From a virus, in the IMG/VR virus record IMGVR_UViG_3300028392_000038, positions 32,001 through 96,000 of that record: DNA of 64,000 nt; one strand, given 5' to 3'. Positions 3,001-54,890 of this stretch are shown here, piece after piece. Positions within the stretch are counted from its first letter, which is position 1. The number at the start of each line of letters is the position of its first letter. The position numbers were made by a program, and so were the translations under genes. Below the pieces are notes generated by a model. That model saw only the letters and a list, made by a program, of their open reading frames with translations, had not been told where the DNA came from and ran no database searches.

Positions 3001-6000
3001 AGATGTACCTGATGATCCAGATGTACCTGATGACCCAGAAGTACCAGAAGATCCACTTGTACCTGATGATCCAGATGATCCAGAAGTACCTGATGACCCA
3101 GAAGTACCAGATGATCCAGAAGAACCGCTTGATCCAGAAGAACCGCTTGTACCTGATGATCCACTTGATCCAGATGTACCATTTGATCCATCAATACCAT
3201 TTACACCGCTAATACCAGATGATCCAGATGAACCGCTTGTACCAGAAGAACCAGATGATCCACTTGTACCAGATGATCCACTTGATCCAGAAGTACCAGA
3301 AGATCCACTTGTACCTGATGATCCAGAAGAACCAGATGTACCGGATGTACCTGATGAACCACTTGATCCAGATGTTCCACTTGACCCAGATGTACCAGAA
3401 GAACCACTTGTACCAGATGTTCCACTTGATCCTGAAGATCCACTTGTACCAGAAGAACCGGATGTACCAGAAGTACCAGATGATCCAGAAGTACCAGATG
3501 ACCCACTTGTACCAGAAGTACCCGATGATCCAGAAGACCCACTTGTACCAGAAGTACCCGATGATCCTGCTGATCCACTAGATCCTGCTTGAGCTAAAAG
3601 ATTCCAATATGCCAAATTGATTGGATATGGTCCATATGATGGAGCAATACAAATATAAGATGAACCATTATATTGTACAACATCATTGATGCTAAAACTA
3701 TGGTTTATATCCCAATCTCCATACCAATGAATAGAAGTACCTGAACTACCACTTGTACCAGATGATCCAGAAGTACCAGATGATCCAGAAGTACCAGATG
3801 ATCCAGAAGTACCGGATGATCCAGATGATCCAGATGTACCTGATGATCCACTTGTACCGGATGAACCACTTGTACCAGATGATCCAGAAGTACCAGATGA
3901 TCCAGAAGTACCGGATGATCCAGATGATCCAGATGTACCGGATGAACCACTTGTACCGGATGATCCAGATGATCCAGAAGTACCAGATGTACCGGATGAT
4001 CCAGATGTACCGGATGATCCACTTGTGCCATTAGACCCGTCAATACCATTCACTCCACTGACACCAGAAGATCCAGAAGTACCAGAAGTACCAGATGATC
4101 CACTTGATCCAGAAGTACCAGATGATCCACTTGTACCAGAAGATCCGGAAGTACCTGATGATCCAGAAGTACCAGATGATCCACTTGATCCAGATGTACC
4201 AGATGTACCAGATGATCCAGATGTACCAGAAGATCCAGAAGTACCAGATGAACCAGAAGTACCGGATGTACCTGAAGTACCACTTGATCCAGATGTACCA
4301 GAAGAACCAGATGTCCCACTTGATCCAGATGTACCAGAAGAACCAGAAGAACCAGAAGTACCTGATGATCCACTTGTACCAGAAGATCCAGAAGTACCTG
4401 ATGATCCACTTGTACCGGAACTACCAGATGTACCACTTGATCCAGAAGTACCGGATGAACCACTTGTACCGGAAGAACCACTTGATCCAGATGTACCATT
4501 TGATCCATCAATACCATTCACACCACTAACTCCAGATGATCCAGATGTACCGGATGAACCAGAAGTACCACTTGATCCAGATGTACCAGAAGAACCAGAA
4601 GATCCAGAAGTACCAGATGATCCACTTGTACCAGATGATCCACTTGTACCAGATGATCCACTTGTACCAGATGATCCACTTGTACCAGATGATCCACTTG
4701 TACCAGATGATCCACTTGTACCAGATGATCCACTTGTACCTGATGATCCACTTGTACCTGATGATCCACTTGTACCTGATGATCCACTTGTACCACTTGA
4801 TCCAGAAGTACCTGATGATCCACTTGTACCAGATGATCCACTTGTACCAGATGATCCACTTGTACCAGATGATCCGGAAGTACCAGAAGTACCAGATGAT
4901 CCACTTGTACCTGATGATCCAGATGATCCAGAAGTACCAGATGATCCACTTGTACCAGAAGAACCAGATGATCCAGAAGATCCAGAAGTACCTGATGATC
5001 CGGAAGTACCAGATGATCCACTTGTACCAGATGATCCAGATGATCCAGATGTACCACTTGTACCTGAACTACCAGAAGTACCTGATGATCCACTTGATCC
5101 ACTTGTACCAGAAGATCCACTTGATCCAGAAGTACCGGAAGATCCAGAAGTACCTGAACTACCACTTGTACCTGAACTACCAGAAGTACCTGATGATCCA
5201 GATGAACCACTTGTACCTGATGTTCCAGAAGTACCTGATGATCCACTTGTACCGGAGGATCCACTTGTTCCATTTGATCCATCAATACCATTAACACCGC
5301 TAACTCCAGAGGATCCACTTGTACCACTTGATCCAGATGATCCAGAAGTACCGGATGATCCAGAAGTACCGGATGATCCAGATGAACCACTTGTACCTGA
5401 TGTTCCAGAAGTACCAGATGATCCGGATGTGCCTGAACTACCACTTGTACCACTTGATCCAGAAGTACCAGATGATCCAGAAGATCCAGAAGATCCACTT
5501 GTACCAGATGTACCAGAAGATCCAGAAGTACCTGAACTACCACTTGTACCAGAAGAACCAGATGATCCAGAAGATCCAGAAGTACCTGATGATCCAGATG
5601 ATCCACTTGTACCACTTGATCCAGAAGTACCACTTGATCCAGAAGTACCGGATGATCCAGAAGTACCGGATGATCCAGAAGTACCGGATGATCCAGAAGT
5701 ACCGGATGATCCAGAAGTACCGGATGATCCAGAAGTACCGGATGATCCAGAAGTACCAGTTGATCCAGAAGTACCAGTTGATCCAGAAGTACCACTTGAT
5801 CCAGAAGTACCACTTGATCCAGAAGTACCACTTGATCCAGAAGTACCACTTGATCCAGAAGTACCGGATGATCCACTTGTACCATTAGACCCGTCAATAC
5901 CATTCACTCCACTGACACCAGAAGAACCAGAAGTACCAGATGATCCAGATGAACCAGAAGTACCGGATGATCCACTTGTACCGGATGACCCAGAAGTACC

Positions 6001-31291: not shown

Positions 31292-32060
31292 ATTTTTTAA
31301 AATTATCTGAATAGGTAAAATTAGCATTTAAGTTTGGCTGAGTAGGTTTATCATTCACAGGAACCTCAATATTTTTAAATTTTTCTTCAACTTCTTTTGG
31401 GTTACAGTATTTAGGATTCATTACTACAACCATATCATAATTCAAAGGTTCTGAGCTTAATATCTTTGGGTCTCCTGTTTTTATCCAAATATAATCACTT
31501 TCTTTGAATAAATGTTGATATACACTTTTTTTAACTTCTGGACTAGACCCGCTCTCACTTACTATATATCCAACATTTGGATCATCTAATAAAGCTCTAT
31601 AAACTTTATAACCAAAATGCTCAATGTCTAATGTCGGTAGATTTTCACCTTTTGAACCTTCAAATCCTGTTTCTTGATTTGGTTCGTATTTTTGACCACC
31701 TGGTTTTTTCCCATGATACCAATGTATTTGATTTTTAGGAGTCAATATAATATAGTTCATATTCTTCCAAACTTCCCAAGCAGTTGTATCAGCAGTCCAT
31801 TCATACTTAGTGTATTGATTATCGCGGTTAGTCTCTAATCCTTTGTACCAGAATGATTGCATAGAACCAGGTTCACCCATTTTATGATCTTTCATTTTTT
31901 TCATAACACTGATACCTTCCTCGTCATTAAAAAATATATCAAAAGATTTTGCACCAGGTTCACTTACACCACGTTTATCTTTTGATAACAAAACAGATAC
32001 CTCCTTATATTTAGCTTCTGTAATTAATATAAATTGTTCATATAACTTTAAGTATTTCAT
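31290..32060 (-). CDS. Hypothetical protein
   Basis: Leader MKYLKLYEQFILITE. Confidence 0.7.
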   Translation of the reverse strand: MKYLKLYEQFILITEAKYKEVSVLLSKDKRGVSEPGAKSFDIFFNDEEGISVMKKMKDHKMGEPGSMQSFWYKGLETNRDNQYTKYEWTADTTAWEVWKNMNYIILTPKNQIHWYHGKKPGGQKYEPNQETGFEGSKGENLPTLDIEHFGYKVYRALLDDPNVGYIVSESGSSPEVKKSVYQHLFKESDYIWIKTGDPKILSSEPLNYDMVVVMNPKYCNPKEVEEKFKNIEVPVNDKPTQPNLNANFTYSDNFKK

Positions 32061-47646: not shown

Positions 47647-48603
47647 ATGGAAAATTATATAAACGATGATGAGAAGGAGTATAACTCTTTTATCTATCAA
47701 TGGGAAGATATTAAATTGAATAAATTTTATATTGGGTCACATTATGGTAGTATTAATGATGGTTATCTATTTGGTGGTATAGACATCAAAAAGGAGTATA
47801 AAGAGAGACCAAATGATTTTAAAAGGAAAATATTATCATATCATTTGGTTTCTGAATATTTGGAGATAAGAAAAATAGAAAAAGAATATCTTATAAAAAA
47901 TGACGTTGAAAATAATGATTTTTTTTATAATAGAACTAATGAATCATATGGTGGGTATCATAAAAAATCTGTTGAAAGGAGACTAAATGATATTGATGAA
48001 AATGGCTTAAATCATTTTCAGAGATCTGCCTTAAAAATGGTCAAGACTAGAAAAGAAAACGGTAGCTATAAGACGTCAAAAATAAAGGAGTATATTACTA
48101 AGAATGATATAATGTCTGATATAAAAAATAAAATATCAAAAACTTTGATGGGTAGAAAGTGGGTCAATAAAGATGGAGAAATAAGATATATTAGAGAAGA
48201 AGAATTCTTAACATATCTAAAAGATGGATGGAGTGATGGATTGAAATATAATATATCATATGATGAATGTAAAAAAATAGCAATTGATAATAATATAAAA
48301 TCAGCATCAGAATGGTATAAATACTCAAGTGAAGTAGATTTACCGACACATCCAGAAAGAAGGTATAAAGAATGGATAAGTTGGAATAGTTTTCTTGATA
48401 AGAAAATTATAAATTATATATCATATGATGAGTGTAAAAAAATAGCAATTGATAATAATATAAAATCAGCATCTGAGTGGAAAAAATTAACAAAGTATAT
48501 AAAGAATATACCATCTAATCCAAGTAGAAAATATAAAGAATGGATAAATTGGTATAGATTCTTAGATAAAGAACATTTTGATATTTCTATTTCTCTTCTT
48601 TAA
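47647..48603 (+). CDS. GIY-YIG (Seg-like) homing endonuclease with integrase-repeat-like C-terminal modules
   Basis: FIYQW..KFYIGSH.G..DGY..E..FYN; two SYDECKKIAIDNNIKSASEW..P..P..YKEWI.W..FL repeats. Confidence 0.78.
   Translation: MENYINDDEKEYNSFIYQWEDIKLNKFYIGSHYGSINDGYLFGGIDIKKEYKERPNDFKRKILSYHLVSEYLEIRKIEKEYLIKNDVENNDFFYNRTNESYGGYHKKSVERRLNDIDENGLNHFQRSALKMVKTRKENGSYKTSKIKEYITKNDIMSDIKNKISKTLMGRKWVNKDGEIRYIREEEFLTYLKDGWSDGLKYNISYDECKKIAIDNNIKSASEWYKYSSEVDLPTHPERRYKEWISWNSFLDKKIINYISYDECKKIAIDNNIKSASEWKKLTKYIKNIPSNPSRKYKEWINWYRFLDKEHFDISISLL
48253..48480 (+). repeat. 63-bp near-identical direct repeat (48253-48315, 48418-48480)
   Basis: Internal domain duplication with 165-bp period. 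Confidence 0.9.
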
Positions 48604-49860: not shown

Positions 49861-50214
49861 TTATTTCTTTTCAGAAGGTTTAGCTTTTTTCACAGCTGGT
49901 TTAGCAGAAGGTTTAGCAACTGTTTTTGTAGCTGGTTTAACTTGCTTCGCAGCAGGCTTAGCAACTGGTTTTTCAGTCTTAGGTTCAGTCTTTGCTTTAG
50001 ACTTAATATCTTTAGCAGTAACTTTTTTCTCTTCTTTCTTTTCAGCAGCTATTTCAGCTAATCTGTTTTCAATTACTTTAGTTGGTTCTTCAACTTTAGC
50101 TTTCTCAACTTTAGGAGCCTCAGTTTTTTCAACTGTTACAACTGGCTTTTCGGCTATAGTAATAGCTTCTTCTTTCTTTCCAAATAGATTTTTAAAGAAT
50201 GATAATATACTCAT
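49861..50214 (-). CDS. Lys/Ala/Pro-rich (histone H1-like) protein
   Basis: KPVAKPAAKQVKPATKTVAKPSAKPAVKKAKP; amphipathic N-terminus. Confidence 0.65.
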   Translation of the reverse strand: MSILSFFKNLFGKKEEAITIAEKPVVTVEKTEAPKVEKAKVEEPTKVIENRLAEIAAEKKEEKKVTAKDIKSKAKTEPKTEKPVAKPAAKQVKPATKTVAKPSAKPAVKKAKPSEKK

Positions 50215-50324
50215 AATTTAGTTTATTTTTTATTATATATCTATTTCTTTATCTTCCCTCTATAAAAAACCTCAAAAATTCCACAAATTTAAACACTTAG
50301 TATTATTTTATATATAACAATGAG

Positions 50325-51056
50325 ATGAAATTTAGATATGATAAAGAAACTGAAGAAATAGTTGTTACGTCAGCAACTAGAATTGAATACCACCAAGTTG
50401 GTCTTTGGTTAACTCGTCATGTCAAAGGATATAGATATATGCCAGCATTTAAAATGGGTGTTTGGAATGGACAACAAACCTATTTCAAAAATGGTAGAGT
50501 AAATATAGGTCTTTGGAAAGAAGCTATGAGGGGATGTAAAGAAATTGATGCTCCTTTTATTTTAGAAAATAAAGAAGACTTTCCACTAAACAAAGATGTA
50601 ACATTAGAAAAGGTTAAAAACTTCTGTAATGAATTCTTTAAGGATCATAAAGTTAAAACTAAAGATGGTCAATGGGTTCCTTTTACACCCTATGAACATC
50701 AAATAGAATCAGCATTTAAAATACTTAAAAATAGATTCTGTATGGCAGAGGTTGCTACATCTGGTGGTAAGTCACTAATCATATCTATAGTAATGTTTTA
50801 TACATTAAAGAATATGAATCCAGATGCTAAGTTTCTTATCATAGTTCCATCAATTACTTTAGTTACTCAGTTCTATGATGATTTATTAAAAAATTTCCAC
50901 GGAGAGAACAATATTACTAATATATATAATAATTATTATTTGGAGATAGAATTGGTTGATAATACTATTTTAAAATTAAAACCAAATGATAAAATAATAA
51001 CAAAAAATAGAGGAGAAATTTTTGCAAAAGATTTAACTGAGCTAGACGAAATATGA
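50325..51056 (+). CDS. uvsW: UvsW-like SF2 helicase, N-terminal half, with intein-N-like tail
   Basis: GVWNG, PYEHQ (Q motif), ATSGGKS (Walker A), IIVPSITLVTQ (Ia); ends ..TKNRGEIFAKDLTELDEI. Confidence 0.85.
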   Translation: MKFRYDKETEEIVVTSATRIEYHQVGLWLTRHVKGYRYMPAFKMGVWNGQQTYFKNGRVNIGLWKEAMRGCKEIDAPFILENKEDFPLNKDVTLEKVKNFCNEFFKDHKVKTKDGQWVPFTPYEHQIESAFKILKNRFCMAEVATSGGKSLIISIVMFYTLKNMNPDAKFLIIVPSITLVTQFYDDLLKNFHGENNITNIYNNYYLEIELVDNTILKLKPNDKIITKNRGEIFAKDLTELDEI

Positions 51057-52294
51057 GAAAACTGGAGAAAAATGAGATTTTAGAAAAATTCAAAGAAAAG
51101 CACAGTAATAATTATGACTACTCAAAGTTTGAGTATGTCGGTTATCACAAAAAAACAATAATAATATGTAAAATACATGGTGGATTTTTACAAACTCCAT
51201 CTAAGCATATAATAGGACAAGGATGTAAAATATGTAATATTAAATATTCTATTGGTGAGATAAAAGATAAGTTATATAAAATACACGGAGATAAATATGA
51301 TTTTATTTTTGATGATGATGTAATAGATACTAGATCGAAAATAAAAATAAAATGTAATCATGGAATAAAAGAATTACAAATACGATCTTTATTACAAGGA
51401 CAAGGATGTATTTCTTGTAAGGGTAAAAAATGGACAGAGTTTGACCTGAAGAATTATCTAATTAAAATTCATAGTGAATTAGTATATGAAGATGGATTTA
51501 TGAATGGTCAATTTCTAAAAGTTATTTGTAAAGAACATGGTGATTTTAATATTAAAAAGGATAGACATTTAAGTGGACAGGGTTGTCCAAAATGTTCTAA
51601 AAGAAAAAAATATGACCAAACATTTTTTATAGATTCTATTAGTAAAAAATTTAATAATTTAAGTTATGATAATTGTATTTTTATTTCTTTTAATAAAAAG
51701 GTTATAATAACTTGTACAAAACATGGAGATTTTGAAACGTATCCTAGTTATCTATTAAATGGTAATGGTTGTAAAATATGTAGAAATGAAAATAATTCAC
51801 ATTCCAAAGAATATTTTTTACAAAAATGTTTAGAAAGACATCCAGAAATAGATCATAGTATTTTAGAATATAATGGTGTTAATAATAATATTAAATTGAT
51901 TTGTAAGAAACATGGTATATTTGAACAAAAGGCGGGGTATTATTTGAATTATAGCAAAGGTTGTAAATATTGTAATGAGACAAAGGGAGAGAAACAAATT
52001 AGAATTTATTTAGAAAATAACAACCTAAAATATAAACAACAATATAAAAATCATGGATTTATTTTTGATTTTTATATACCAGATTACAATACATATATAG
52101 AGTTTAATGGTAGACAACATTATGAACCTATAGAATTTTTTGGTGGTGTTAAGTCATATAATAAACAATTATCAAAAGATAAATTAAAAGATCAAATTTT
52201 AAAAAATGAGAATATAAAATTGATAAAAATAGGATATTGGCAAATAAATAAAGTTGATTGTATTTTAAAAAAAGAATTAATAAATGAAAATTAA
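51053..52294 (+). CDS. Homing endonuclease (multiple DUF723-like Zn repeats plus Vsr-like domain) inserted within uvsW
   Basis: 5x C..HG.F..G.GC..C-type repeats; FDFYIP..IEFNG.QH; overlaps both helicase halves. Confidence 0.85.
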   Translation: MRKLEKNEILEKFKEKHSNNYDYSKFEYVGYHKKTIIICKIHGGFLQTPSKHIIGQGCKICNIKYSIGEIKDKLYKIHGDKYDFIFDDDVIDTRSKIKIKCNHGIKELQIRSLLQGQGCISCKGKKWTEFDLKNYLIKIHSELVYEDGFMNGQFLKVICKEHGDFNIKKDRHLSGQGCPKCSKRKKYDQTFFIDSISKKFNNLSYDNCIFISFNKKVIITCTKHGDFETYPSYLLNGNGCKICRNENNSHSKEYFLQKCLERHPEIDHSILEYNGVNNNIKLICKKHGIFEQKAGYYLNYSKGCKYCNETKGEKQIRIYLENNNLKYKQQYKNHGFIFDFYIPDYNTYIEFNGRQHYEPIEFFGGVKSYNKQLSKDKLKDQILKNENIKLIKIGYWQINKVDCILKKELINEN

Positions 52295-53285
52295 AAGAAT
52301 ATCTAAAATAAAAATAGATGATGAAATAAGAGTAGAAGAAATAATGTCAGATAGACCAAGAAAATTCTCAGGTACTGAAAATCCTAACTTTTATATTGGC
52401 ACTTATCAATCTTTAGAAAAGTGGCCTAAAACATTTTTTCAGCAATTTCACACGGTGGCTTGTGATGAGGCACATGGTTCAAAAAGTAAGACAATAACAT
52501 CTATTCTAGAAAATACTTTTAAACATGCTTATTCAAGATTTGGAGTCTCTGGTACTTTTCCGGAAGATGATACTTGTGAAATACTAACCATACAATCTGT
52601 ATTAGGTCCAAAGATTACAGAGGTTTCCGCAAATGAATTAAAAGAAAAGGGTATCATCACACCAATGGATATTAAAGTTGTGATAATGAATCATAATGAC
52701 TCTGAATTTGCTGAAAGAATTAATATAATAAAGAAAAGTGGAAATGGTAAAGACGCATTTGATTTAGAAAAAGATTATATTCATATCTCTGAAAGAAGAT
52801 TAGACTTCATTAAAAAGATAGTAGATAAATGTGACTCAAATACATTACTACTATTTCATACAATTGAATATGGTCAAAGTATTTTTAATAAGTTACAGAA
52901 AGAATGCTCTGATAAGGAATTTTATTATATTGATGGTGAGATATCTGGTAAGAAAAGAGAAGTTATTAAAAAAGAAATGGATAAAACCGATGGTAAAACC
53001 AAAGTATTATGTGCGAGTTTTGGGACATTATCTACAGGTGTCTCGATTAATGCCATCTTCAATGTTATATTTGCTGATTCATTTAAGTCAGAACAAATTA
53101 TTATACAATCAATAGGTCGTGCTCTTCGTTTACATGATGATAAAAAGAAAGCTAATATATTTGACTTAGTTGATGTTTTCTCATCAGGTGAGATGTCTAA
53201 TATTTTGTACAGACATTTTAAAGAAAGAGAGAAGTTTTATATTAAAAGACAGTATCCTTATAAAATTACTAAAATTAATCTATAA
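52284..53285 (+). CDS. uvsW: UvsW-like SF2 helicase, C-terminal half, with intein-C-like leader
   Basis: MKIKRISKIKIDD then TYQSL, CDEAH (Walker B), GVSGT (III), STGVSI (V), QSIGRALR (VI). Confidence 0.88.
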   Translation: MKIKRISKIKIDDEIRVEEIMSDRPRKFSGTENPNFYIGTYQSLEKWPKTFFQQFHTVACDEAHGSKSKTITSILENTFKHAYSRFGVSGTFPEDDTCEILTIQSVLGPKITEVSANELKEKGIITPMDIKVVIMNHNDSEFAERINIIKKSGNGKDAFDLEKDYIHISERRLDFIKKIVDKCDSNTLLLFHTIEYGQSIFNKLQKECSDKEFYYIDGEISGKKREVIKKEMDKTDGKTKVLCASFGTLSTGVSINAIFNVIFADSFKSEQIIIQSIGRALRLHDDKKKANIFDLVDVFSSGEMSNILYRHFKEREKFYIKRQYPYKITKINL

Positions 53286-54890
53286 TTACTTACTAGATTG
53301 AGCATCTTCTACATCCTTAGATGTTATTAAAGTGTAAGTAAATTTATTACCATACTTAGCTTTATGTTTATCTAATAGTCCAAATATTTGATCTAAGTGA
53401 GATGGATCTGGTATAACTTGACATCCTTCTGACCAATTATAAACACCATATGTATTTTTACCTTGAGCTCTATTAAATGCTTTATGTATTAACATACCTG
53501 CTGATCCAGAACCTTCCTTACTAAAGGTTAATTTATCATCACCATTTGCAGCATCTCTATAAAACTTTTGAACACCTGGTCTTAAACATTTTTCACCATG
53601 ATACTCACCAATTTGCCAAGAGTCAACATACTGAGCCGGTTTCAATATTCCTAATCCCCCTCTTTCTTTAATTTTAGGTATATCTTTGTGTAGAATAGAG
53701 TACTTACCACCAACCTGAGAATCTCCTTTACTTCCATATTTACCTGGTATAGTAGAGATAGGAAACCAAACAACTTTTGATGCTCCTTCATCATTTTTAT
53801 AAACAAGATAAATTCTATCTTTGAATTGGTTTGAATATCCTTGGCCAGGATATTGATATCTAACTCCAATTATATTCATTTGCCATGCTTTATCATAAAC
53901 AACATATCCTTTTTTCCTAAGAGCTTTCAAAATTGTTTCAGCATCAGCATTTACTTCTTTTGATGCAGGTGGAATATTATCAGCAGTTATAGGTGGCCCA
54001 CCTGGAGTACCTGGTTCGGTGGTGGGTTGATTAACATTACCATTGGTGTCACCAGCAGCAGTAGTTAAAGTACCTTCAATCGGAGTGGCTGACTTAGGTG
54101 TGAAAGTAATAGGTTCTTTCATAACCAACTCATTCTTCTGAATTGTTGATTTCCAAGTATCACCAACTTGACCATCTGTTACTCTATTATCCTGTGTAGG
54201 TATAATAGATGAATCTATATAACCATTGTCATTTAAATTAACATTCTTAGAAAGAAATTTAGGATCTTTAAGAGCTTTATACTTTGCAAGAACATCTATA
54301 AATGATGAATTAGCAACAACCGGAGCTAATAGATTACCTAAGTAAGGTCCATTTAATAAGTTATCTACAAACTCATCAAACCAATTTAAGAAGTTAGTAC
54401 CAAGTATAGCTTGTTGATTTGCATTACCAGAACCAATATTAATAGTACCCATATTATCTTTTAGATTCATATCAATACCACCATCTCTTAAATTTATTTG
54501 AGTTATCTTATAATCTAAAACAACACCCTCTTTATCATTAACAAAAAATTGAGTTTTATGATCAAAGAAAATAGACTTCATTGAAGTATAATCTTTACCA
54601 TCTAAATTTTGTAACTTCTTTTCTAAATTTATATTATAATGTTCAGAATATAAAAATTCAGGTTTGTATATATTTCCTTGATCAAAAACAATAGTAACTA
54701 TTTTACCCTTTTCAGGAACATTAAATCCATTACCATTCAAGTCTTTCCAAGGATTAGCCCAGGGTATATCCTCTGTAGGTATTTCATCAAATATATCCAA
54801 TGCTCTAACTTTAACCCTTCCGAGTTTTTTAGGATCATCATTATCTTCGACTACACCAATATAAGTTTTATTAGCTTCAACTTGAATCAT
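53286..54890 (-). CDS. Baseplate spike protein (gp5-like OB fold) fused to a YkuD-like domain
   Basis: YIGVVEDNDDP.KLGRVKVR..IPWA.P..VP.KG..V..F; C-terminal LIH..WSEGCQV..FTYTLI. Confidence 0.82.
   Translation of the reverse strand: MIQVEANKTYIGVVEDNDDPKKLGRVKVRALDIFDEIPTEDIPWANPWKDLNGNGFNVPEKGKIVTIVFDQGNIYKPEFLYSEHYNINLEKKLQNLDGKDYTSMKSIFFDHKTQFFVNDKEGVVLDYKITQINLRDGGIDMNLKDNMGTINIGSGNANQQAILGTNFLNWFDEFVDNLLNGPYLGNLLAPVVANSSFIDVLAKYKALKDPKFLSKNVNLNDNGYIDSSIIPTQDNRVTDGQVGDTWKSTIQKNELVMKEPITFTPKSATPIEGTLTTAAGDTNGNVNQPTTEPGTPGGPPITADNIPPASKEVNADAETILKALRKKGYVVYDKAWQMNIIGVRYQYPGQGYSNQFKDRIYLVYKNDEGASKVVWFPISTIPGKYGSKGDSQVGGKYSILHKDIPKIKERGGLGILKPAQYVDSWQIGEYHGEKCLRPGVQKFYRDAANGDDKLTFSKEGSGSAGMLIHKAFNRAQGKNTYGVYNWSEGCQVIPDPSHLDQIFGLLDKHKAKYGNKFTYTLITSKDVEDAQSSK

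Follow-up and report, generated by a model that had tools for sequence, protein, structure and literature searches.

A phage UvsW-like helicase split by a homing endonuclease cassette, with tails of split-intein descent and a probable splicing-free association

Since the work on Aeh1 NrdA and T4 gp39/gp60 it has been asked how the products of essential phage genes split by a free-standing homing endonuclease gene (HEG) are reassembled, and what the origin of the tails on such products is. The same question is raised by a UvsW-like helicase gene in a stretch of 64,000 nucleotides (nt) of the virus record IMGVR_UViG_3300028392_000038 (positions 32,001 to 96,000; hereafter the window). This gene is interrupted by an HEG, both helicase halves carry a short tail at the interruption (the N-tail and the C-tail), and the tail sequences show descent from a class-1 split intein. 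Because every splicing residue is gone, the tails most likely clip the two halves together without joining them. The replicon is a large freshwater phage, represented by a 116-kb IMG/VR contig that is about half complete.

The identity of the two halves as a superfamily 2 (SF2) helicase was supported by Pfam matches to DEAD, ResIII and Helicase_C. The DEAD profile was matched at positions 2-77 by residues 124-198 of the N-half and at positions 69-162 by residues 10-95 of the C-half, and for DEAD/ResIII together (N-half 122-203, C-half 10-95) the profile positions were consecutive. T4 UvsW (2OCA) was the best PDB match of both, with N-half residues 21-188 aligned to UvsW 21-178 (8.3e-10) and C-half residues 36-299 to UvsW 207-458 (3.8e-31); UvsW_N scored 21 bits, under the cut-off of 25.3. 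Motifs III-VI and DEAH were carried by the C-half together with RecA domain 2, and the break falls inside RecA domain 1. With Walker A and motif Ia on the N-half and DEAH on the C-half, the ATPase site is divided between two proteins. A preliminary description, made from the letters of this DNA, had reported a helicase cut in RecA domain 1 with an overlapping HEG between the halves, and the open reading frames (ORFs) were found exactly as it gave them; the co-oriented halves with a free-standing HEG also have the fractured-gene layout that it had recognized. In public data the N-half was present in 15 clusters of near-identical length.

Intein homology of the tails

In a phmmer search of PDB with the N-tail (45 amino acids, aa) the top-ranking match was the NrdJ-1 split intein (E=0.0085), with tail residues 16-45 aligned to intein residues 75-104 (TILKLKPNDKIITKNRGEIFAKDLTELDEI vs KTIRCTPDHPVYTKNRGYVRADELTDDDEL) and the alignment stopping at the intein split site. 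The same search against 1.84 billion protein cluster representatives identified P0018 (E=6.8e-6, 59% identity), a UvsW-like N part ending in a complete N-terminal intein fragment (IntN) with Cys1 (…SYLIEIELENNTIIKVTPNHKFLTKNRGWVEATELTELDEF…). Besides P0018 there was one more meaningful match, another split variant. The TPR and FN3-repeat matches in this search (P0016, P0017, P0019, P0021 and P0022) were taken as spurious, arising from motifs or repeats.

Four sister-phage loci (L004, L018, L037 and L041) have a textbook fractured helicase, split between DE and AH of the DEAH motif (the DE/AH site). Their cassettes consist of a 100-aa IntN starting at CLHPDS…, a free ORF and a C-terminal intein fragment (IntC) of 33-35 aa followed by Cys (IntC of L004: MKIKKIKKIEHSDNVYNLRIEDNHNYFVNNLCVSN). 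With a hidden Markov model (HMM) of the window-type tails the IntN of P0018 scored 59.7 bits and those of L004, L018 and L037 scored 25.6-29.0 bits, all matching in register at IntN positions 53/55-91/93; the fourth, L041, scored only 3.3 bits. When the tails were compared by hhalign with the canonical inteins at the DE/AH site of the sister phages the probability was 97.8% (E=1e-12). The C-tail aligned with IntC residues 1-14 (MKIKKIKKIEHSDN in L004) with a BLOSUM score of 40, the next best among the N-termini of 111 window ORFs being 24, and the shuffle p for this match to the IntC start was 4.6e-4. A phmmer search of PDB with a 21-aa C-tail query gave no match, the query being too short, and a PDB search with the profile of alignment A3 was dominated by its helicase columns and was uninformative for the tail module. 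A tblastn search of cultured phages with the fused module described below gave no significant match.

These matches, which for the N-tail amount to five independent lines, bear out the preliminary description, which had likened the tails to distal IntN sequence and the first IntC strand, and show that the tails are stubs descended from a class-1 split intein. The residues kept flank the canonical split site on both sides (IntN ~55-93 and IntC 1-14) and number ~54, vs 133-135 in those canonical relatives for which both halves are available. Missing from the start of the intein are ~54 residues, Cys1 and block A among them, and there is no Cys in the tail; the junction (position 199) is T, S or A and not a conserved Cys, Ser or Thr. 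At the place of the block B TxxH, which is TPNH, TGNH or TPDH in canonical relatives, the window has KPND and other lineages have NPDD, KPDD, DPDS and SPND. Blocks F and G are missing, as are the terminal Asn and a +1 nucleophile, there is no counterpart to VYNLRIEDNHNYFVNNLCVSN followed by Cys, and the +1 residue is Ile or Leu. The catalytic elements were absent in 7/7 lineages with DNA that are split at this site (site 1: the window, L009, L056, L057, L062, L107 and L110) and in 3/3 fused forms, so that the loss of splicing residues noted earlier extends to all lineages examined. Since all splicing elements are absent or replaced, splicing is not possible. The window tails thus lack what defines a class-1 intein (the nucleophile and block A, the block B His, and blocks F and G with the Asn and +1 residue) yet are homologous to inteins.

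A natural re-fused form of the helicase without the HEG was found in L034, P0100 and P0101 (three clusters), all of 575 aa, in which a turn of two residues connects the tails (…KLTDKHKI-DG-IAIKRIIKNKLDKPL-RIEEIMS). The 70-aa fused segment of L034 was modelled with AlphaFold2 using the split tails as partial alignment rows, and the model had a mean predicted local distance difference test (pLDDT) score of 86.5, with 92-97 for residues 11-60. It was all-beta, with the C-tail equivalent as a 10-residue strand and the other strands all from the N-tail part. The top ~40 Foldseek matches in PDB were almost only inteins or Hint domains (probability 0.99-1.0; query-normalised template modelling score 0.54-0.67), with no E-value below 0.046 for this very short query, and the 28 best-scoring entries among PDB cluster representatives were inteins or Hint domains in every case (28/28). 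The model mapped to residues 39-102 of the gp41-1 intein and 56-127 of NrdJ-1, which correspond to the distal IntN and the IntC start. For the retained piece the prediction is therefore the core portion of the Hint fold; by sequence order it is not one of the two pseudo-symmetric halves, and in this respect the earlier suggestion that about half of the fold had been kept is overstated. AlphaFold2 of the N-half alone gave a mean pLDDT of 56.5, with 27-37 in the tail, from a shallow alignment and was not used as evidence of disorder.

Borders, content and mobility of the cassette

The features of the locus are listed in Table 1. Cassette borders were located by blastn of the window against L004, L089 and L001. 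The siblings L004 and L089 were ~93% identical to the window in flanking DNA, this identity ended at 50894 and resumed at 52329, and the 1434 nt between these positions in the window compared with 84 nt in the cassette-less sibling allele. The cassette adds a tail of 40-45 aa to the N-half and of 14 aa to the C-half.

Table 1. Coordinates of the split helicase, its tails and the inserted cassette in the window
Feature	Position	Strand	Description
N-half, UvsW-like SF2 helicase	50325..51056	+	243 aa; UvsW-type N-terminal domain, Walker A, motif Ia, then N-tail
Walker A TSGGKS	50757-50774	+	on N-half
Motif Ia IIVPSITLVTQ	50838-50870	+	on N-half
Inserted cassette	50895..52328	+	1434 nt; LLKNFHGENNI recoded helicase stretch, N-tail, HEG, C-tail
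N-tail YYLEIEL...LTELDEI	50934..51053	+	40 aa; net charge -3; intein-homologous
KPND	50979-50990	+	within N-tail, at place of block B TxxH
Free-standing HEG	51053..52294	+	413 aa; other frame than N-half
C-tail MKIKRISKIKIDDE	52284..52325	+	14 aa; net charge +2, +5 over first 10 residues
C-half of helicase	52284..53285	+	333 aa; same frame as N-half; native from IRVEEIMS
DEAH	52464-52475	+	on C-half, with TYQS, SGT, RecA domain 2

Uninterrupted orthologues included L001 and L002 (536 aa, huge uncultured phages) and dozens of IMG/VR and metagenome loci. Most intact orthologues had neither tail and carried ~20 other residues at that place (e.g. VEMREKNSDTIISGSHVPCD), bounded by QFYDNI.EYN.G.NNL and (V/I)R(V/I)EE(V/I)MS; the window has instead TNIYNN, YYLEIELVDNTILKLKPNDKIITKNRGEIFAKDLTELDEI and a stop, the HEG, and then MKIKRISKIKIDDE. 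Intact proteins with the tails were confined to the fused clade of L034, P0100 and P0101, where the tails form an extra insert and are not ordinary helicase sequence. The preliminary description had treated the start of the C-half as a tail, which applies to its first 14 residues; the IRVEEI(MS) that follows is native helicase sequence and is present in intact orthologues.

The split state was scattered in a tree of the N-terminal 193 residues. The window paired with L004 (96% identity, no such cassette) and P0003 paired with L057 (other tail type), and the cassette with its tails was present or absent between genomes 93-96% identical. Independent lake metagenome contigs spanned both junctions and the arrangement is therefore not an assembly artefact; the split arrangement was found in lake metagenomes of 16 studies. 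A cassette-less allele (…NIVEYNMGVN…) shared lake samples with the cassette-bearing allele (50879/52329 in run X4, 50879 in run X7), and this co-occurrence provides conditions under which homing could be ongoing. Given the sharp borders, the scattered tree distribution and the co-occurring empty allele, the unit of tail, HEG and tail behaves as a mobile cassette. A metagenome scan with a 51-aa tail query gave no confirmed locus, while a scan with alignment A1 did yield loci.

In L004 a canonical split-intein cassette was present at the DE/AH site (L004:5796-7079, corresponding to window 52470-52506), ~140 nt downstream of the site used in the window, with a 100-aa IntN, a different free-standing ORF of 277 aa and a 35-aa IntC followed by Cys. 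As L004 has this cassette and not that of the window, the one gene hosts two alternative mobile cassettes.

The middle gene is a putative Vsr/DUF559-type homing endonuclease. It matched PHROG 559 at E=2e-62, with PHROG 681 and 9084 (homing endonuclease) also strong, and appeared to consist of repeated zinc-ribbon modules and a C-terminal Vsr/DUF559-like nuclease domain. Pfam matches to DUF559 and DUF4379 were weak and below the cut-off, an NCBIfam scan gave no match, and relatives in Staphylococcus phages carry the annotation "group I intron-associated VSR homing endonuclease". The ATG of the HEG overlaps the TGA of the N-half (ATGA) and the C-half overlaps the end of the HEG by 11 nt, and the HEG is translationally coupled to both helicase halves. 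Vsr-type HEGs of 296-413 aa occupied this position in the window, L009, L056 and L062, and one of at least 352 aa, reaching the contig end, in L107. In L057 an unrelated HNH-type ORF of 275 aa (1152-1979) was located between the same two tails with ATGA-style overlaps and is an HEG replacement within a conserved tail pair, and in the fused clade the tails were kept and the HEG was lost.

An Rfam scan of 50000-53500 gave no family at E<=1 and hence no ribozyme. Stop read-through under alternative codes was considered as the relatives are huge phages, and was rejected: recoding of TGA or TAG at the N-half stop adds few codons before more stops. RNA run X20 contained one 269-nt contig only, inside the HEG, and was uninformative on splicing or expression of the helicase halves.

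An ORF of 318 aa at 47647-48603 (+) with a GIY-YIG-like start (…YNSFIYQWEDIKLNKFYIGSH…) and an internal direct protein repeat (NISYDECKKIAIDNNIKSASEW… present twice) is probably another free-standing homing endonuclease; L009 has a relative in the corresponding position (3782-4558). Between this ORF and the helicase, immediately upstream of the latter at 49861-50214 (-), is a low-complexity ORF of 117 aa rich in Lys, Ala, Pro and Glu (…KPAAKQVKPATKTVAKPSAKPAVKKAKPSEKK), whose position is kept in L004, L009, L018, L037 and L041 and which by its look is a histone-H1-like or DNA-binding basic protein.

A second split site was observed in the same helicase family, in RecA domain 2 after …IKKxME.T, where the C-half of the window is intact. 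The tail at this site (…VEYTILNFGDYEIEFKSDFKVLLSNG.YK.AKDI..DDDIDD.F…) has no Cys1 and no TxxH and was aligned by hhalign with positions 41-95 of canonical IntN (72.7%, P=3e-5). Members were P0023, P0024, P0028, P0038, P0066 and P0067, the loci L011, L028, L042, L049 and L050, in which the first ORF ends at ~aa 480-503, and L041:6941-7732. With this second split in RecA domain 2 besides the first, the helicase is in three pieces in some phages. The last piece in L049 (7841-8176, MARIVDKRKEIREEG-TTKVLVASYG…) is 1.4 kb downstream, and in several loci the last piece was not found nearby.

Association of the helicase halves

The tails were compared across the seven site-1 split lineages named above. 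Their ratio of nonsynonymous to synonymous substitution (dN/dS) was ~0.05-0.48, with dS saturated, and that of the helicase core was 0.05-0.16; the tail is thus constrained, less than the core. Residues 1-11 of the C-tail were invariant under synonymous changes and the hydrophobic and Gly positions of the tails were strictly conserved. Charges were opposite and conserved, -2 to -7 for the N-tail and +2 to +5 for the C-tail, and the canonical L004 pair was alike. In the capture-and-collapse model of split inteins the fragments recognize each other through an anionic, disordered part of IntN and a cationic IntC (PMC11766414), and the retained tails are the exact segment to which capture is assigned, which counts in favour of an association without splicing. 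The tails also outlast turnover of the HEG, which may be of the Vsr type, of the HNH type (L057) or missing (L034).

In the mechanism that we propose, a mobile cassette entered RecA domain 1 at a surface loop and thereby separated Walker A/Ia from DEAH. This cassette comprises a Vsr-type HEG flanked by two short coding stubs of class-1 split-intein descent, with ~40 residues from before the canonical split site and 14 from after it, the splicing parts having been deleted or replaced. Translation of the overlapping, coupled genes would give the two helicase halves as separate polypeptides. Their stubs, acidic on the N-half and basic on the C-half, would most likely capture each other electrostatically as split-intein fragments do, and the C strand would then complete a small beta sheet. 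The outcome would be a pendant partial-Hint module of ~55 residues that holds the halves non-covalently while the RecA1 fold and the ATPase site are reassembled. We put the probability that the stubs bind like split-intein fragments and tether the halves in this way, so that RecA1 re-forms, at roughly 0.6. Indirect support comes from the purifying selection on the tails, from their complementary charges and from their survival while the HEG turns over, and from these we infer that the stubs bind in trans and that helicase function needs this binding. Tails of this kind have been found to matter elsewhere, those of Aeh1 NrdA being essential for activity (PMC3045599).

Several observations weigh against such a clasp, and some of them also favour its main rival, in which the stubs are true intein remnants tolerated as relics, a harmless pendant or solubility aid, and the halves reassemble through RecA1 itself. 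Two halves of one RecA domain may associate unaided. The Aeh1 NrdA heterodimer forms without the tails, which are needed for higher assembly and activity (PMC3045599), and the T4 TOPRIM insertion lies outside the domain and hardly altered activity when tested in a fused construct (PMC11461880). Tail dN was ~2x the dN of the helicase core. The fused forms (L034, P0100 and P0101) keep the module though no clasp is needed there, and selection could therefore be only for a harmlessly folding insert; in this clade the module had 81% identity vs 95% for the rest of the protein, in small numbers, and its faster divergence fits a relaxed need after fusion. Pfam and NCBIfam scans of the isolated tails, with Hint models included, gave no match at E<=10. 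The high tail identity among the close relatives of the window is due in part to horizontal spread of the cassette, and the AlphaFold2 model could be influenced by inteins that the network has memorized. Set against tolerated relics are a dN/dS well below 1 with saturated dS across six cassette lineages, the strict conservation of hydrophobic and Gly positions and of C-tail residues 1-11, the conserved opposite charges, and the fact that the kept part is exactly the capture segment of split inteins (PMC11766414) with all else deleted. On this balance we find the relic explanation doubtful.

A reversed order of events, in which a contiguous splicing-dead mini-intein stub as in L034 was first fixed as an insertion domain with a function of its own and an HEG invaded later, would account for the 575-aa fused form in three clusters and for the unrelated nuclease families (Vsr, HNH) in the HEG slot, and the tree cannot tell gain from loss. 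We think it quite improbable, however, as the split form is far commoner and more diverse than the fused one, the break is exactly at the canonical split-intein site with ends (…DEI stop / MKIK…) styled as in the canonical alleles of sister phages, and the cassette including the tails is present or absent between 93-96% identical genomes. The shared reading frame of the N- and C-halves and the resemblance of the layout to fractured genes whose inteins splice (PMC2677866) would suit covalent joining, by non-canonical protein splicing or at the RNA level. This is rendered extremely improbable by the lack of a conserved Cys, Ser or Thr at the junction, of the block B His, of blocks F and G and of the terminal Asn, by the Ile or Leu at +1, by an intein-derived part of ~54 residues where canonical relatives have 133-135, and by the overlapping genes with no Rfam ribozyme. 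Equally improbable is a decaying pseudogene disrupted by the HEG. The interruption does fall within a catalytic domain, but neither half is shortened or lacks a motif, core dN/dS is ~0.05-0.16, and the arrangement recurs across many diverged lineages and in the lake metagenomes of 16 studies.

Split inteins might decay to a minimal (~55 aa) splicing-free heterodimerisation module, and this would be a general route by which HEG cassettes are kept harmless in essential genes, a generalisation that we advance only tentatively. The second split site, in RecA domain 2, with its truncated-intein-like tail would then have arisen in this way too, as might the C-terminal and N-terminal extension (CTE/NTE) tails of T4 gp39/gp60 and Aeh1 NrdA, and a natural, very small orthogonal protein clasp would be available for engineering. 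In one phage this helicase carries a fully canonical split intein, in a 93%-identical sibling it carries a truncated one stripped of its catalytic elements, and intermediate states exist in which the HEG was swapped or was lost with the halves re-fused. With these states side by side, the path of decay from splicing to mere association is directly testable. Also testable are how much of the Hint fold the fragments need to recognize each other, and a natural charge-complementary two-piece binding module of ~55 residues with possible use in protein engineering.

Comparison with known systems

Engineered splicing-dead split inteins serve as affinity or association tags through non-covalent, high-affinity association of their fragments. 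They differ from the window module in that they retain the whole Hint fold with point mutations, whereas the module has less than half of it. Full-text literature searches gave no paper on natural truncated, catalytically dead split inteins in such a role.

The fractured genes of Dassa et al. 2009 (e.g. gp41-1, NrdJ-1; PMC2677866) share with the window the order of an N part with an IntN-like end, a free HEG, and an IntC-like start with a C part, as well as the HEG family and the phage and metagenome setting; the window tails are homologous to theirs in sequence, and canonical examples are found in the same helicase of sister phages at the DE/AH site. In the window, however, the insertion is in the loop after motif Ia, not at DE/AH, and only IntN ~55-93 and IntC 1-14 are kept, with no trans-splicing possible. 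The split inteins of the fractured genes carry six motifs and five catalytic residues (PMC2677866) and splice, and the window locus, deviating in four defining features, is thus not a member of the inteins.

The preliminary description had suggested that an endonuclease could in this way reside in a replication gene without any splicing of RNA or protein. For essential genes such an arrangement is already documented in Aeh1 nrdA/mobE (PMC3045599) and T4 39/mobA/60 (PMC11461880; 10.1101/2022.08.31.505936). In Aeh1 NrdA-a/mobE/NrdA-b (Crona et al. 2011, PMC3045599) a free-standing HEG likewise splits an essential gene without splicing of either kind. The Aeh1 tail of the N part is basic, with the charge polarity reversed relative to the window, and tail function was shown experimentally in Aeh1 whereas in the window the intein ancestry is demonstrable by sequence and a predicted fold. 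The Aeh1 authors speculated that the tails were remnants of a degenerate split intein and found no sequence match (PMC3045599); an intein origin of such tails has been only speculation so far because no sequence match existed.

In T4 gp39/mobA/gp60 the CTE/NTE tails form a TOPRIM insertion of ~70 aa (PMC11461880; 10.1101/2022.08.31.505936), and for this system exchange and loss of the HEG, as well as secondary fusions that kept the tails, are on record (10.1101/2022.08.31.505936). Unlike the window, T4 has a 50-nt bypass, and no intein relationship of the T4 tails is described in PMC11461880 or 10.1101/2022.08.31.505936. T4 gp39 gave a weak hhalign match to the window-type tails (P=0.002) and the tails HMM was not significant. 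As in Aeh1 NrdA and T4 gp39/gp60, the window tails are absent from uninterrupted orthologues and are delivered with the HEG cassette, and in functional terms the locus appears to belong with these HEG cassettes that add CTE/NTE tails. The concept itself thus has precedent in Aeh1 and T4, and what the window adds is the intein origin of the tails and with it a link, at the level of sequence, between fractured genes that undergo protein splicing and split genes that do without it.

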